Shown here: piece after piece, positions 183-15,823 of the stretch
Position numbering within the stretch: position 1 is the first letter of the stretch
Layout: each line of letters starts with the position of its first letter
From: Escherichia coli
GTDB lineage: Bacteria; Pseudomonadota; Gammaproteobacteria; Enterobacterales; Enterobacteriaceae
Direction: 5' to 3' (one strand)
Length of the DNA: 15,823 nucleotides
NCBI RefSeq assembly: GCF_003334385.1
Contig: NZ_QOWN01000065.1
Position numbers and translations under genes: made by a program
Notes under the pieces: generated by a model
The model's database searches: none
Told to the model about the DNA's origin: nothing
The model's input: only the letters and a program-made list of their open reading frames with translations

Positions 183-1192
183 TTATTTGTTGTTGCGCAG
201 ATCCAGCGCCACGTCAACGATCATATCCTCCTGGCCGCCAACCATCCGGCGTTTGCCCAGCTCAACGAGAATATCCACCGCACTTAAGCCATAACGCGCC
301 GCCGCCGTTTCACAGTGACGCAGGAAGCTCGAGTAAACACCAGCGTATCCCAGCGCCAGCGTTTCGCGATCGACTCGTACCGGTCGATCCTGCAACGGAC
401 GCACCAGGTCGTCGGCGGCATCCATTAACGCATAGAGATCGGTCCCATGCTGCCAGCCCAGTTTATCCGCGGCGGCAATAAACACTTCCAGCGGTGCGTT
501 ACCTGCGCCCGCGCCCATTCCCGCGAGGCTGGCGTCGATTCGGTCGCAGCCCTCTTCCACCGCCGCGATAGAGTTCGCCACGCCAAGACTCAGGTTATGG
601 TGAGCGTGCATGCCAGTTTGCGTTTCTGGTTTCAGCTCTGCTTTCAGGGCGCGGAAACGGTCACGGATATCGCTCATGTTCATCGCACCGCCAGAATCCA
701 CCACATAAATACAGGTCGCACCGTAGCCTTCCATCAGCTTTGCCTGCTTGGCGAGATTCTCCGGCGTGGTCATATGGCTCATCATCAGAAAACCAACGGT
801 GTCCATTCCGAGCTCGCGGGCATACTGAATATGCTGGGCGGAAACATCAGCTTCGGTACAGTGCGTTGCCACACGAACCACCCGCGCGCCAGCCTGCCAG
901 GCATTTTTCAGATCGTGAATAGTGCCGATTCCTGGCAGCAACAACGTCGCGATTTTGGCGTGCTTCACCACATCCGCCGCCGCTTCAATCCATTCAAGGT
1001 CGCTATGTGCGCCGAAACCATAGTTAAAGCTGGAACCTTGCAAACCGTCGCCGTGGGCCACTTCAATCGAATCCACGCGGGCATCGTCCAGTGCTTTGGC
1101 AATCTGGCGAACGTTTTCCAGCGAATACTGATGACGAATGGCGTGCATACCGTCACGCAATGTGACGTCCGAGATATAAAGTTTTTTACCGT

Positions 1193-1196
<4 letters not shown>
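183..1196 (-). CDS. mhpE: 4-hydroxy-2-oxovalerate aldolase (337 aa)
   Basis: 337-aa ORF; product and length match MhpE as recalled; HMG/pyruvate-aldolase-like sequence; start overlaps the mhpF stop by 4 nt (ATGA), consistent with operon coupling. Confidence 0.93.
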
Positions 1197-2958
<1,762 letters not shown>

Positions 2959-3825
2959 TTAAGGGCGTGCGAGGAAATTCAGCACCAGTTGATTGAAAGC
3001 GTCGGCATGTTCCCACTGCGCCCAGTGACCACAGTCGCGGAAGATATGCAGTTCAGAACCGGCAATGCCGGACAGCAGACGCAGACCCGCATCCATCGGC
3101 ACAAAGCGGTCGTTGCGCCCCCAGACAATCAGGGTTTGCGCTTTGATTTCCGCCAGACGTGGGCCAAAATCCGGGAACTGTTTCGGATTAGCTTCCAGGC
3201 TCTTAACGAAGTTTTCCAGGTGATCGCGGCGCGACAGCATATTATTCAGGCGCGCTTCAAACAGGGCGTCGGTCAAATCGCTGGTATCAAAAACGAAGAT
3301 ATCCATCATCAGCTTCAGGTTTTCGATAGTCGGCTGACGATAAAGCTGATTCAGTCGCTTAATACCTTCGGTTGGCATCGGCGTAAACAAACTCATGCCG
3401 CCCGTACCGCCGCCCATCAGCACCAGTTTGCCGACGCGCTCCGGCCATTTAAGGGTGAACGCCACAGAACTATGGCCCCCCATCGAGTTGCCCAGCAGGT
3501 GGATTTTGGCGATATCCAGTTGATCCACCACGCTTTTCAGGATTCGTGCATTAAGATCCGATCGCGAACCACTATTAACGACCGAATCGCTCTTGCCCCA
3601 ACCCGGACAATCCAGCAGGATCACCCGATAGCCCGCCTCTACCAGCGGATCGATATTGCGGCTGAAGTTCGCCCAGCCAGTAGCACCCGGGCCGGAACCA
3701 TGCAGCAGGACAACGGTTTCGTCGCCTTGTCCGCAGTCATTAAAATGGATGCGCAGCGTTTTACCCGCTTCTTCTACATTCAGAAAACGGCTGGTGGCGG
3801 CTTCGGTTTGTGGCTGATAACTCAT
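2959..3825 (-). CDS. mhpC: 2-hydroxy-6-oxonona-2,4-dienedioate hydrolase (alpha/beta hydrolase, 288 aa)
   Basis: The track ORF 2959..3888 is 309 aa; the recalled MhpC is 288 aa starting [14 protein letters not shown], which puts the start at 3825, preceded by an AGGAGA RBS. GNSMGG nucleophile-elbow motif present. Confidence 0.9.
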
Positions 3826-3842
3826 CATCTTCTCCTGCATAT

Positions 3843-4787
3843 TCAGTTCTCTGTTCTGGCGCTTAACGAGCCAAATCCGGCAATCCACTCCGGGATTGGG
3901 CGGTAATAACGCCCTTCGCTACGCCAGTTGCCAAACGCAGAAATAGCGGCAAAAGCGGCGACCCAGGTTTTGATTTAATGTGTCGACTTTCCGGCAATGG
4001 CGGAAAGCTCTTCGTTACTGACGGCATCCAGTTCCTGTATGCGTCCCTGCTCCAGCAAAGTCATGAACTGGTTATCCCAAATCGGGTTGAGCGGATGCAG
4101 CGTTCTCTGATCCTCAACAAACTTCTCAGCGGCGCTAATCACCCGTTGCTGACGCAATTCGCGCTCACTGGCGGGTAAATCTTTCCCGCTCCCCAACAGA
4201 CGGTCGCGCATATGGGCATCGGCTTTCGCCAGTTCGGGCACCGGCGGCTGATGGGAAAGCCCACCGGAACCCAGGAACAGCACGCGTTTATTGAGAGTGC
4301 TGGTGAAACGTCCAATGGCTTCACCCAACATGCGGGTACGCTGGAAACCGGGCAGCGGCGTGGCGACACCGTTGATGAACACAGGCAGAACTGGCACCTT
4401 ATCCAGCCCACCGAGCAGGAACTCCAGCGGCTGGGCGAACCCGTGGTCCACCTGCATACAGTAAGAAACGGCAAGATCGATCCCGCTCTTCATGACGGCA
4501 TGCGCACAGGCCTCCGCCAGCTCCACAGGCACGGGCAGCTCTCCTGCCGCACTGCCGAAATCACCAATTGCCGTCGCTCCAACGCCTAAACAGAACGGTG
4601 GCATCACGTCATAGAAAAAGCCGTTGTAGTGATCTGGCGCAAACAGCACCACCAGTTCAGGGGAGAATGCCGCAATACGCTCGCGGGCGCTGGCAATCAC
4701 GCCATTGACCTCATCGAGCACCTCTTGCGCCGGGTCGACATACCCCACCAGCGGCGAGTGGGAAAGACAGTGAAGATAAGCGTGCAT
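3843..4787 (-). CDS. mhpB: 3-carboxyethylcatechol 2,3-dioxygenase (extradiol dioxygenase), reading frame interrupted by an in-frame TAA at 3975..3977. The uninterrupted ORF is 3975..4787 (270 aa); the same frame continues for 43 more codons ([43 protein letters not shown]) to the expected stop at 3843..3845
   Basis: The 270-aa ORF matches the MhpB N-terminal 270 residues as recalled (full length 314 aa). Directly after the TAA the frame encodes the recalled MhpB C-terminus. Consistent with a single-nucleotide nonsense change (plus-strand position 3977 A; expected C, giving GAA Glu). Confidence 0.85.
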
Positions 4788-4788
4788 A

Positions 4789-6453
4789 TCAGGCTACCTT
4801 TTCGACAGAAACGTCGGCATCAGGGCGGGTCAGCGTCATCACCGACGCCAGTTTATTCAGGGTCTTGCCCAGGGTTTGCGGAATGGCGGTGGCGGCAACA
4901 AAGCGATCCGGGCGCATCACCACCAGCGAAGCATTGTGTTGCGCGAACCAGCTACGCAGGCGACCTTGCGTATCGCCCACGCGTAGTACGCCGTCGTGGT
5001 TATCCTGTGCGGTATGAATTTGCACTTCCGGCACCACCTGAATGAAGCGTGTGCCCAACGCGCGCCACTGCTGGATTTGCTCGTCGCTCATCCCCCACAG
5101 TGGATTGCATCCCCAGCCAATTACCGCGAAGTTCGCGCCGATCGCGTTATCGAGCAGCGTCACGTCGCCGTTTTCCAGCGTGACTTTCGGCTGAATAAAC
5201 ATCTTGCCGACCGGAGAGTGCTTCGCTTCGCCCTCACGCATCAGCGCACCGCCGTAATATTGCGGCATCGGCTTGAAGCGCATTTCGAGGAAGTAGCGTT
5301 TTACTGGCGGCAGATAATTCAACAGCCAGGAAACGCCGTCACGTAACGTACCCTGCCAGCGTTTCGGCGGAGCCAGCACGTTGCCCGCCGTCACGGACAG
5401 GTCAATCATCGCTTTGGCGTGATCGCGACGTTCTTGTTGATAGGTATCGAGCAGCGCATCGCGGGCTTTCCCCTGGATAACCAACGCCAGTTTCCATGCG
5501 AGGTTAAAGGCGTCGCGCATACCACTGTTATAGCCCTGCCCCTGCCATACCGGCATGATGTGCGCGGCATCGCCCGCCAGCAGTACGCGATCAATACGGA
5601 AACGTTGCGCCAGTCGCGCGTTGTGGGTGTAGACACGCTGGCGAATCAATTCAACATTGTCCGGATTAGGCAGCACTTTGCTTAACAGCTTGCGCATATT
5701 TTGCGGCTCACGCAACTGCTCTTCGGTTTCTCCCGGCATCACCATAAATTCAAAGCGACGTACCGCATGAGGCAGCGCGGCAGAAACATACGGGCGCACC
5801 GGATCGCAACACAAATAGATATGCGGCGTACTTAACGGATCGTTGGCGATATCTACCACAATCCACTGATTTGGCGCAGTTTTACCTTCAAACGGCACAT
5901 TCAGAGTGCGACGGACAAAACTTGCTCCACCGTCACAGGCTACCAGCCACTGGGCTTTGACTATTTCCCGCTGCCCTTCTGCCGTTTTCAGGTGCAAGGT
6001 CACTTCGTCATCTTGCTGACTGAAGGCCTCCAGCTCGCGGGAAAACAAGCAGCGCACATTCGGAAAACGCGACACCCCTTCCAGCATCACCGCATCGACC
6101 TGCGGCTGAATAAAGGCGTTACGGCGCGGCCAGCCAAATTCATCGGTCATTGGCTGAATATCAGCAAAACAGCGGCCTTTCGGGGTGAGAAAACGCATCG
6201 CGTGCCACGGCGTAGTGTGCGGCAGAACATCATCGACCAGGCCGACCGACTGCATGGTGCGCAGCGCCTCGTCATCAATACCAATCGCACGCGGGTAGTC
6301 GATCAACTTATCGAGTTTCTCCACCACCAGCACGTCAATGCCCATCTGGCCGAGATAGTTCGCCATCATCAGCCCAACCGGGCCGGCACCAGCGATCGCC
6401 ACCTGAACGCTATGGTTAACAGCAGGCTGGATGTCAGGGTGTTGTATTGCCAT
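4789..6453 (-). CDS. mhpA: 3-(3-hydroxyphenyl)propionate hydroxylase, FAD-dependent monooxygenase (554 aa)
   Basis: 554-aa ORF with N-terminal FAD-binding GxGxxG motif ([16 protein letters not shown]); length matches MhpA; stop lies 1 nt from the mhpB start. Confidence 0.93.
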
Positions 6454-6594
6454 TTCAGTACCTCACGACTCGGACAAAATGTCGTTGCGCGCACAGTACA
6501 GCGCAACTTATTTTGTTAAAAACATGTAAATGATTTTTTATTGTGCGCTCAGTATAGGAAGGGTGTTTTCGGCTACAATCAAAACATGCCCGAA

Positions 6595-6611
6595 TGTGCA
6601 CCAGGTGCACC
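6595..6611. promoter_or_regulatory. 17-bp imperfect palindrome tgtgcaccaggtgcacc (reverse complement ggtgcacctggtgcaca) in the divergent mhpR–mhpA intergenic region; candidate MhpR operator of the mhp catabolic promoter
   Basis: Palindrome seen in the sequence; assignment to MhpR is from recollection of the published Pa operator and is not verified here. Confidence 0.5.
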
Positions 6612-6643
6612 ACGTTGTTTTAACTATAGAAATGTCAATTAAT

Positions 6644-7477
6644 ATGCAGAACAATGAGCAGACGGAATACAAAACCGTGCGCGGCTTAACCCGCGGTCTA
6701 ATGTTATTAAATATGTTAAATAAACTTGATGGCGGTGCCAGCGTCGGGCTGCTGGCGGAACTCAGCGGCCTGCATCGCACCACTGTGCGGCGACTGCTGG
6801 AGACGCTGCAGGAAGAGGGATATGTCCGCCGTAGCCCCTCCGATGATAGTTTTCGACTGACCATCAAAGTGCGGCAATTAAGCGAAGGATTTCGTGACGA
6901 ACAGTGGATTTCTGCACTGGCGGCCCCACTGCTGGGCGATCTGTTGCGCGAAGTGGTATGGCCGACAGATGTGTCCACGCTGGATGTTGATGCAATGGTG
7001 GTACGCGAAACCACTCACCGTTTCAGCCGCTTATCCTTTCACCGGGCAATGGTCGGGCGACGTTTGCCGCTTCTGAAAACCGCCTCGGGCCTGACCTGGC
7101 TGGCCTTTTGCCCGTAACAAGACCGCAAGGAATTAATCGAAATGTTAGCCTCCCGCCCCGGTGATGACTATCAACTGGCACGGGAACCGTTAAAGCTGGA
7201 AGCCATTCTGGCGCGCGCGCGCAAAGAGGGTTACGGACAGAACTACCGCGGCTGGGATCAGGAGGAGAAGATCGCCTCTATCGCCGTACCGCTGCGCAGT
7301 GAACAACGGGTGATTGGCTGTCTGAATCTGGTGTATATGGCGAGCGCAATGACCATTGAACAGGCAGCGGAAAAGCATCTTCCGGCGCTACAACGGGTAG
7401 CAAAACAGATCGAAGAAGGGGTTGAATCGCAGGCTATTCTGGTGGCCGGAAGGCGAAGCGGCATGCATTTACGTTGA
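6644..7477 (+). CDS. mhpR: IclR-family transcriptional activator of the mhp operon (expected 277 aa), interrupted by an in-frame TAA at 7115..7117. Present as an N-terminal ORF 6644..7117 (157 aa from MQNNEQ; wHTH domain) and a same-frame C-terminal ORF 7142..7477 (111 aa)
   Basis: Track ORFs 6530..7117 and 7142..7477 are in the same frame, separated only by TAA plus 8 sense codons (QDRKELIE). Read-through from ATG 6644 gives exactly 277 codons, the recalled MhpR length. IclR-type HTH (LSGLHRTTVRRLLETL) present in the N-terminal part. Confidence 0.85.
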
Positions 7478-7489
7478 CACCATCGAATG

Positions 7490-7518
7490 GCGCAAAACCT
7501 TTCGCGGTATGGCATGAT
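7490..7518 (+). promoter_or_regulatory. lacI constitutive promoter: -35 GCGCAA (7490..7495) and -10 CATGAT (7513..7518); wild-type, not lacIq
   Basis: Sequence gacaccatcgaatggcgcaaaacctttcgcggtatggcatgatagcgcccgg matches the canonical wild-type lacI promoter as recalled; the lacIq C-to-T at the -35 is absent. Confidence 0.85.
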
Positions 7519-7553
7519 AGCGCCCGGAAGAGAGTCAATTCAGGGTGGTGAAT

Positions 7554-8636
7554 GTGAAACCAGTAACGTTATACGATGTCGCAGAGTATGCCGGTGTCTC
7601 TTATCAGACCGTTTCCCGCGTGGTGAACCAGGCCAGCCACGTTTCTGCGAAAACGCGGGAAAAAGTGGAAGCGGCGATGGCGGAGCTGAATTACATTCCC
7701 AACCGCGTGGCACAACAACTGGCGGGCAAACAGTCGTTGCTGATTGGCGTTGCCACCTCCAGTCTGGCCCTGCACGCGCCGGCGCAAATTGTCGCGGCGA
7801 TTAAATCTCGCGCCGATCAACTGGGTGCCAGCGTGGTGGTGTCGATGGTAGAACGAAGCGGCGTCGAAGCCTGTAAAGCGGCGGTGCACAATCTTCTCGC
7901 GCAACGCGTCAGTGGGCTGATCATTAACTATCCGCTGGATGACCAGGATGCCATTGCTGTGGAAGCTGCCTGCACTAATGTTCCGGCGTTATTTCTTGAT
8001 GTCTCTGACCAGACACCCATCAACAGTATTATTTTCTCCCATGAAGACGGTACGCGACTGGGCGTGGAGCATCTGGTCGCATTGGGTCACCAGCAAATCG
8101 CGCTGTTAGCGGGCCCATTAAGTTCTGTCTCGGCGCGTCTGCGTCTGGCTGGCTGGCATAAATATCTCACTCGCAATCAAATTCAGCCGATAGCGGAACG
8201 GGAAGGCGACTGGAGTGCCATGTCCGGTTTTCAACAAACCATGCAAATGCTGAATGAGGGCATCGTTCCCACTGCGATGCTGGTTGCCAACGATCAGATG
8301 GCGCTGGGCGCAATGCGCGCCATTACCGAGTCCGGGCTGCGCGTTGGTGCGGATATCTCGGTAGTGGGATACGACGATACCGAAGACAGCTCATGTTATA
8401 TCCCGCCGTTAACCACCATCAAACAGGATTTTCGCCTGCTGGGGCAAACCAGCGTGGACCGCTTGCTGCAACTCTCTCAGGGCCAGGCGGTGAAGGGCAA
8501 TCAGCTGTTGCCCGTCTCACTGGTGAAAAGAAAAACCACCCTGGCGCCCAATACGCAAACCGCCTCTCCCCGCGCGTTGGCCGATTCATTAATGCAGCTG
8601 GCACGACAGGTTTCCCGACTGGAAAGCGGGCAGTGA
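7554..8636 (+). CDS. lacI: lactose operon repressor LacI (360 aa), GTG start
   Basis: Begins GTG AAA CCA GTA (MKPVTLYDVAEYAGVSYQTVSRVVNQ); the track ORF starts two codons further upstream on an alternative start. Protein matches LacI throughout as recalled, except codon 77 (GCG Ala here, TCG Ser recalled). Ends ...RLESGQ followed by TGA. Confidence 0.96.
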   Translation: MKPVTLYDVAEYAGVSYQTVSRVVNQASHVSAKTREKVEAAMAELNYIPNRVAQQLAGKQSLLIGVATSSLALHAPAQIVAAIKSRADQLGASVVVSMVERSGVEACKAAVHNLLAQRVSGLIINYPLDDQDAIAVEAACTNVPALFLDVSDQTPINSIIFSHEDGTRLGVEHLVALGHQQIALLAGPLSSVSARLRLAGWHKYLTRNQIQPIAEREGDWSAMSGFQQTMQMLNEGIVPTAMLVANDQMALGAMRAITESGLRVGADISVVGYDDTEDSSCYIPPLTTIKQDFRLLGQTSVDRLLQLSQGQAVKGNQLLPVSLVKRKTTLAPNTQTASPRALADSLMQLARQVSRLESGQ

Positions 8637-8649: not shown

Positions 8650-8671
8650 AATGTGAGTTAGCTCACTCATT
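8650..8671 (+). promoter_or_regulatory. CRP (CAP) binding site of the lac promoter (aatgtgagttagctcactcatt)
   Basis: Canonical TGTGA-N6-TCACT lac CAP site, exact as recalled. Confidence 0.92.
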
Positions 8672-8684
8672 AGGCACCCCAGGC

Positions 8685-8714
8685 TTTACACTTTATGCTT
8701 CCGGCTCGTATGTT
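8685..8714 (+). promoter_or_regulatory. lac promoter P1: -35 TTTACA (8685..8690) and -10 TATGTT (8709..8714); wild-type, not lacUV5
   Basis: Hexamers and spacing match wild-type lacP; the -10 is TATGTT rather than the UV5 TATAAT. Confidence 0.92.
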
Positions 8715-8720
8715 GTGTAA

Positions 8721-11833
<3,113 letters not shown>

Positions 11834-15605: not shown

Positions 15606-15823
15606 TTACGCTGCGGTCGGTTGGCGTAGCGGTATGGCACAAACGCGAGGATTAGCGGCCAGTGGCACAAACTGGCGGGTTGCGCCGTCAAAAGCTGCGA
15701 TGCTGCCGCTTTCAATGTCGTAGACCCAGCCGTGCAGGGCGATCCGCCCATAAGCGCTAACTTAAGGGTTGTGGTATTACGCCTGATATGATTTAACGTG
15801 CCGATGAATTACTCTCACGATAA
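15606..15823 (-). CDS. cynT: carbonic anhydrase CynT, 3' portion only (gene runs off the window). The last 48 codons (15609..15752) encode [47 protein letters not shown]; upstream of about 15753 the frame is not open
   Basis: Hand translation of the minus strand gives the CynT C-terminus as recalled, with a TAA stop at 15606..15608. An in-frame TAA lies at 15762..15764 and all three minus-strand frames contain stops in 15753..15823. Confidence 0.7.

Follow-up and report, generated by a model that had tools for sequence, protein, structure and literature searches.

The region between mhpA and mhpR in this contig of Escherichia coli raises the question of whether a palindrome lying between two divergent genes is the operator of the activator MhpR, and what state the operon is in when the activator gene itself carries a stop codon. 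The mhp cluster encodes the 3-(3-hydroxyphenyl)propionate pathway, in which MhpB is the ring-cleavage dioxygenase. For the K-12 cluster a divergent Pa/Pr control region has reportedly been described. A sequence-only reading of the region had assigned a 17-bp palindrome to MhpR, noted a second palindrome in the mhpA leader and predicted that the locus is silent and readily revertible. These points are considered here for the window, by which we mean the whole stretch of 15,823 nucleotides that was analysed.

Gene order and differences from K-12

The ORF map and a comparison with 5,426 complete E. coli genomes identified the window as a K-12-like segment (Table 1). The genes mhpA, mhpR, lacI and their neighbours are the same and stand in the same order as in the K-12 annotation, and the MhpA protein is 100% identical to that of K-12. 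Compared with the closest genomes, the window differs at seven or eight positions only. Between 5715 and 7115 there are zero differences from K-12. Therefore the whole intergenic region (6454-6643), which is the exact gap between the ATG of mhpA (6453, minus strand) and the ATG of mhpR (6644, plus strand), has all of its 190 bp as in K-12, and the cis elements are intact as had been supposed.

Table 1. Features of the window, with positions counted from its first nucleotide.
Feature	Position	Strand	Remarks
mhpE-F-D-C-B-A		-	ORF map and genome comparison
mhpR-lacI-lacZYA		+	ORF map and genome comparison
cynX, cynS	after lacZYA	-	
mhpB premature stop E271* (GAA>TAA)	3975-3977	-	270 of 314 aa remain; difference from closest genomes at 3977
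mhpA CDS	4789-6453	-	554 aa, intact; start codon 6451-6453
mhpA L247L	5715		difference from closest genomes
Shine-Dalgarno-like GTGAGG	6461-6466	-	7 nt before mhpA ATG
Nested hairpin, inferred mhpA leader	6474-6516		about +30 to +72; inverted repeats and RNA folds
A/T-rich leader block ATAAAAAATCATTTACATGTTTTTAAC (mhpA sense)	6517-6543	-	many invariant alignment columns
Inferred Pa transcription start	6544-6545	-	6-7 nt downstream of invariant -10 box
Pa -10 hexamer TATACT	6551-6556	-	invariant in all 21 enterobacterial sequences aligned
Weak -35-like TTGTAG	6573-6578	-	16 nt from -10 box
Conserved block TTTTGATTGTAG	6573-6584	-	invariant or near-invariant in enterobacterial alignment
Conserved TTGTTTTA	6615-6622	+	4 nt from operator, mhpR side
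Weak CRP-like site TGTCAattaatATGCA	6633-6648		centre 6640.5; overlaps mhpR ATG
Truncated mhpR	6644-7117	+	157 codons, then TAA 7115-7117 (E158*, GAA>TAA)
mhpR E158*	7115		difference from closest genomes
In-frame mhpR remainder	7118-7480	+	codons 159-277 and natural stop; not translated from mhpR start
lacI S77A	7782		difference from closest genomes
lac promoter -2/-1 GG>AA	8719-8720		difference from closest genomes
lacO1 +12 G>A	8732		difference from closest genomes
lacZ G21G	8821		difference from closest genomes

Several observations concern the remainder of the window. The change at +12 of lacO1 weakens the dyad symmetry of the lac operator, the A at 8720 is common to some isolates, and the best complete-genome match over 8660-8860 still leaves two mismatches. 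The changes in the lac control region and lacI S77A together could alter lac repression. Homology to cynT stops at 15749 and an IS4-like (IS421-family) element follows from 15750 (window 15750-15823); the 5' part of cynT is missing, just as it is in SCU-104, a strain of E. coli, and the cynT of K-12 is intact at this place. The full window, used as a query, matched a median of 34 places in each genome, and thus some short segment of it must be a dispersed repeat, such as an IS end or a REP-like element. The idea of a synthetic window was rejected, since an identical 6.8 kb occurs in the public run ERR4578729.

The MhpR operator and the Pa promoter

On the plus strand, 6595-6611 reads TGTGCACCAGGTGCACC, and its reverse complement, in the sense of mhpA, is GGTGCACCTGGTGCACA. 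This 17-mer is an imperfect palindrome with the end bases G and A unpaired. Its core at 6596-6610 is perfect (GTGCACC-A-GGTGCAC, with 7-bp arms around one base), and the stretch doubles as a 9-bp-spaced direct repeat of GTGCACC. Within the window it is the sole match to itself, even at up to three mismatches. Table 1 of PMC8222616 gives GGTGCACCTGGTGCACA for MhpR of E. coli (citing Torres et al., 2003), and the reverse complement of 6595-6611 is identical to that motif. The published operator, as tabulated there, is therefore at this position and not elsewhere. Compared with the Pa/Pr region of K-12, the 190-bp sequence, the 17-bp operator and the flanking genes with their order are all identical. 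Very probably, then, 6595-6611 is the known MhpR operator in a canonical divergent Pr/Pa control region, and the sequence-only reading was right both in this assignment and in calling it established biology. The site is like the IclR-family operators of other aromatic-catabolism activators and repressors (PcaU, PobR, HmgR and TphR among others, collected in PMC8222616) in being a short palindrome near the regulator gene in a divergent intergenic region. The mhp core differs from those operators in consisting of two self-palindromic GTGCAC hexamers with a 3-bp spacing.

E. coli is polymorphic (C or A) at 6611, where A makes the 17-bp operator perfectly palindromic. The A, carried by several other E. 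coli lineages, is also the consensus of Citrobacter and Kluyvera; K-12 and the window have the imperfect allele with C. Upstream of its start, the mhpR frame stays open as far as an ATG at 6530, and gene callers accordingly give a product of 195 aa here and of 315 aa in intact strains. Since homologues align from the start at 6644, the upstream extension (6530-6643, across the operator) is almost certainly not translated.

For a phylogenetic footprint, K-12 MhpR was searched in one genome per species, which gave 80 loci with 54-98% protein identity from Escherichia, Citrobacter, Kluyvera, Shimwellia, Edaphovirga, Pluralibacter, Vibrio, Pseudomonas, Azotobacter, Zobellella, Marinobacterium and Nitrincola. 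The gene mhpA is divergent from mhpR in about 65 of the 80, and every such intergenic region contains the motif. GTGCAC-N3-GTGCAC, exact or with one mismatch, is found upstream of mhpR in 78 of the 80 loci. It lies within 120-150 nt upstream of mhpR in exact form in 64 and with one mismatch in nine, and five of the remaining seven loci have it at 200-250 nt upstream. Measured from its centre, the motif precedes the start of mhpR by 29-72 nt (41 and 46 nt being the most frequent distances) and stands 88-430 nt away from that of mhpA. Of 73 sites, 50 have complementary bases at the inner positions 7 and 9 (C..G or T..A), the pattern to be expected where a dimer binds with dyad symmetry. As a 17-mer the consensus is perfectly palindromic (TGTGCACYWRGTGCACA), and the conserved core can be written as GTGCACY-N-RGTGCAC. 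The 438 kb of flanking sequence contain nine further exact copies; of these, five are the operators of loci in which the upstream region is longer, and the other four lie just downstream of mhpR. These downstream second copies belong to Marinobacterium loci and one Pseudomonas locus (L044:2671, L049:3301, L058:3323 and L083:3343), and their placement suggests an additional MhpR-controlled promoter there.

The Pa promoter can be placed relative to this operator. Of 78 loci, 56 have a TAnnnT hexamer at a distance of 45-47 nt from the start of the operator, and in 47 this hexamer is TATACT. A TTTTSATTGTAG-like block in the -35 region likewise stands at a constant distance from the operator in most of these loci. 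The invariant TATACT at 6556-6551 puts +1 of Pa near 6545, and the operator centre at 6603 is then 58 nt from the start (-58). A consensus promoter scan called no promoter in the region because the -35 box is weak, as is expected for an activator-dependent promoter. The 'terminators' that the consensus scan called were rejected; they are the operator palindrome itself, an artefact of its G+C-rich dyad.

A CRP-like site was found as well. TGTCAattaatATGCA has four mismatches in ten to TGTGA-N6-TCACA, its TGACA half is conserved in Escherichia and Citrobacter, and its centre is at -95.5 if +1 is 6545. In K-12 the operator is reportedly centred at -58 and the CRP site at -95.5 relative to the Pa start; given +1 at 6545, 6603 and 6640.5 of the window would coincide with these positions. 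PMC8753852 describes MhpR as a 3HPP-dependent activator of Pa that is essential for CRP binding, and the weakness of the CRP-like site at 6640.5 fits this requirement.

Other blocks in the region are conserved too. TTGTTTTA is found 4 nt past the operator in nearly all loci, out to Pseudomonas; TAAAACA is invariant in the enterobacterial alignment, and the consensus of 79 sequences (the 78 orthologous loci and the K-12 reference) shows TTGtTTTa. TTGTTTTA may contribute to the region contacted by MhpR or to the mhpR promoter. The A/T-rich block, at the 5' end of the inferred mhpA leader, is conserved in Enterobacterales, and it or TTGTTTTA could belong to the mhpR promoter. In the enterobacterial alignment the sequence GTGAGGT before mhpA shows a conservation of 90% or more. 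The mhpR promoter (Pr) is said to have a CRP site at -40.5; an attempt to place Pr and this site gave no convincing candidate.

The second palindrome in the putative mhpA leader

The second palindrome had been given as 6485-6506. It is present, but each arm is one base longer: GTTGCGC (6484-6490) and GCGCAAC (6501-6507) enclose a 10-nt loop. These are the inner arms of a nested hairpin, of which the outer arms, ACAAAAT (6474-6480) and ATTTTGT (6510-6516), form a perfect 7-bp inverted repeat. Its assignment to the mhpA leader fits the invariant -10 box, a +1 near 6545 and a leader of about 92 nt.

The sequence of the hairpin is not conserved. Escherichia, several types of Citrobacter and three of Kluyvera each carry a different hairpin, and the variants occupy one slot between conserved TTAACAA and GTCCGAG. 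Still, each version folds in Escherichia, Citrobacter and Kluyvera: per-sequence folding against dinucleotide shuffles gave z from -1.2 to -7.3 for most versions, and in ten of 15 usable leader sequences at most 5% of the shuffles were as stable. The three E. coli polymorphisms in the stretch (6482, 6500 and 6509) are all at unpaired positions. The hairpin is missing from those taxa whose leaders are short, namely Shimwellia, Edaphovirga, Pluralibacter and the Pseudomonas fluorescens group. RNAalifold found no consensus structure in a MAFFT alignment of the leaders, since the alignment does not bring the stems into register. Rfam 15 gave no family, and its two matches in 6300-6800 (E = 0.2 and 0.3) are far below the gathering scores.

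The fold was compared on both strands. Taken as a whole, the E. coli leader has no exceptional stability (z = -1.5). The plus strand hairpin folds better, at -19 kcal/mol (z = -3.3). Of the 10 nt in its tail 8 are U, and UUAUUUUGUU follows it in Escherichia, Citrobacter and Kluyvera alike. In the mhpA sense the U-tract is short, offset and lost in Kluyvera. The element is like intrinsic (Rho-independent) terminators or leader attenuators in its flanking A-tract and T-tract, with TTATTTTGTT following on the plus strand. It is unlike intrinsic terminators in that it lies between divergent genes instead of at a gene end and has an interrupted stem and a 10-nt loop. The terminator scan, which is limited to loops of 8, did not call it.

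Palindromes are common in this DNA, and this has to be weighed for both elements. The 15.8 kb contain 58 perfect inverted repeats whose arms measure 7 bp or more and whose spacers do not exceed 30, a density of about 0.7 per 190 nt. When the intergenic region is shuffled, 5.5% of the shuffles contain at least three. By inverted-repeat counts against shuffles within the window, the palindromes are thus not significant, the intergenic count being marginally above the shuffles, and the significance of the operator comes from the literature match and from its conservation in 78 of 80 orthologous loci. It could be argued from these counts that the 17-bp palindrome arose by chance, or, as TGTGC resembles a CRP half-site, that it is the site of another factor such as CRP (TGTGC...GCACC). 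Yet the 17-mer equals the MhpR motif as tabulated in PMC8222616, its core travels with mhpR orthologues at fixed spacing through Enterobacterales, Pseudomonas, Zobellella and Nitrincola, its second half TGCAC is poor against TCACA, and the operator is not among the CRP sites with four or fewer mismatches, so that a chance or foreign site is hardly credible. The same question can be asked of 6484-6507, which as a perfect 7-bp inverted repeat downstream of a promoter has a position frequent for repressors and overlaps a three-mismatch CRP-like match at 6480-6495. That a second regulator of Pa uses it as a DNA operator seems improbable, however, since only its folding ability and not its sequence is conserved, even between Escherichia and Citrobacter, and it is wholly absent where leaders are short.

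A fold that is kept while its sequence varies points to structural constraint or to quasi-palindrome turnover, and against a sequence-specific protein site. Among the possible readings an RNA element of the mhpA leader comes first, though at less than even odds; that the hairpin has no function is nearly as likely, a terminator-like insulator for plus strand transcripts appears more doubtful, and a DNA-level site in general is unlikely. The hairpin may conceivably be an undescribed functional element, either an attenuator or determinant of stability for the mhpA mRNA or a terminator against antisense transcription into the mhpR promoter, a proposal that we regard as speculative.

Stop codons in mhpR and mhpB

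The nonsense codon that had been read in mhpR was confirmed: the TAA of codon 158 is a single-base difference from K-12 and other genomes. Intact MhpR contains HTH_IclR at residues 15-64 and IclR_C at 89-256 (Pfam). The stop falls inside IclR_C, so that the effector domain loses 99 of its 168 residues (about 60%) and the DNA-binding domain is kept. The 195-aa product called on an identical contig contains HTH_IclR only; a complete HTH_IclR and IclR_C in one polypeptide, by which a functional IclR-family regulator can be recognised, is not encoded. The mhpB gene, for a LigB-type extradiol dioxygenase, also has a premature stop.

These two stops set the sequence apart from K-12 and from all 5,426 complete E. 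coli genomes, in which both alleles are absent. A Logan contig of run ERR4578729 is 100% identical over window positions 975-7787, including both stops and lacI S77A; this run may be the source sample of the window itself and is not independent proof against a consensus error. The mhpB stop was also found in a different, 99%-identical lineage with intact mhpR (SRR29106068, L092), the contig of which occurs in four samples. Exact-protein look-ups were uninformative on the stops, as ten of 12 places are partial genes at contig ends with the wild-type G, and the match in them breaks off where a third codon position is polymorphic. Among the seven private substitutions there are three G:C>T:A transversions, both nonsense changes being among them, and two of the five coding changes are nonsense. 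This pattern could come from oxidative damage or a mutY-like bias, or from selection for loss of the pathway.

Two readings would change the picture for this strain. If both stops were assembly or sequencing errors, its mhp system would be intact and inducible; the absence of either allele from every complete genome and the unusual occurrence of two nonsense changes among only five coding differences speak for this. The identical assembly from ERR4578729 across both stops, the recurrence of the mhpB stop in the lineage of SRR29106068, the nature of the changes, which are substitutions unlike the homopolymer indels typical of assembly errors, and the coherent mutational signature of the private changes make such an error quite unlikely. 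The domain boundaries, like the two stops, the sequence identity and the conservation, were established from sequence. A 157-aa fragment bearing the winged helix-turn-helix could still bind DNA, or the stop could be suppressed. Because HTH_IclR and the beginning of IclR_C precede the stop, MhpR(1-157) might still occupy the operator, blind to the inducer, and the locus would be actively locked and not merely unactivated. The C-terminal domain of IclR-family proteins mediates tetramerisation and folding, and such fragments are usually unstable. With about 60% of that domain missing, a locked operator is unlikely, and the outcome at Pa would be identical whether the fragment binds or not, namely no activation.

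We return to an operator with an ineffective activator, and propose a model in which binding by MhpR, the position of the transcription start, the part played by CRP and a silent operon are taken from inference or the literature. An IclR-type MhpR would recognise the dyad GTGCACY-N-RGTGCAC about 58 bp upstream of the Pa start and, when bound to inducer, would help CRP onto its weak upstream site and so activate a sigma-70 promoter with a good -10 and a poor -35 box. Pa would then drive mhpABCDFE through the leader with the hairpin. A product that has the winged-helix domain and lacks most of the effector and oligomerisation domain would leave Pa unactivated. PMC10746267 describes MhpR as the specific regulator of mhpABCDFE. 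As this specific, 3HPP-dependent activator of Pa is truncated here, the operon is predicted to be silent, and with both E158* in mhpR and E271* in mhpB the pathway is, to judge from the gene sequences, doubly broken.

The prediction that the locus is readily revertible is valid for mhpR alone. Position 158 is variable among 81 MhpR homologues (E in 34, D in 25, P in 20, A in one and S in one); several single-base changes could therefore restore MhpR, and true reversion or pseudo-reversion is plausible for this gene. It is not valid for the pathway, since a single reversion cannot restore it while mhpB carries its own stop. The mhpR stop may even be a selected silencer that prevents formation of toxic catechol by MhpA once MhpB is lost; we consider this weaker still than the proposed function of the hairpin.

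For the organism this means that the mhp cluster should be annotated as non-functional, with mhpR and mhpB as pseudogenes and an intact control region, and that the strain is predicted neither to grow on 3-hydroxyphenylpropionate nor to regain growth by one reversion. The locus holds little new biology, being a textbook activator-operator pair in a decaying pathway. For the family, the operator consensus is sharpened to the core given above, which keeps a constant distance to the Pa -10 box in taxa ranging from Escherichia to Pseudomonas. The only new lead is the structure-conserved leader hairpin, which, if its function is real, would add a post-initiation layer to the control of mhp.
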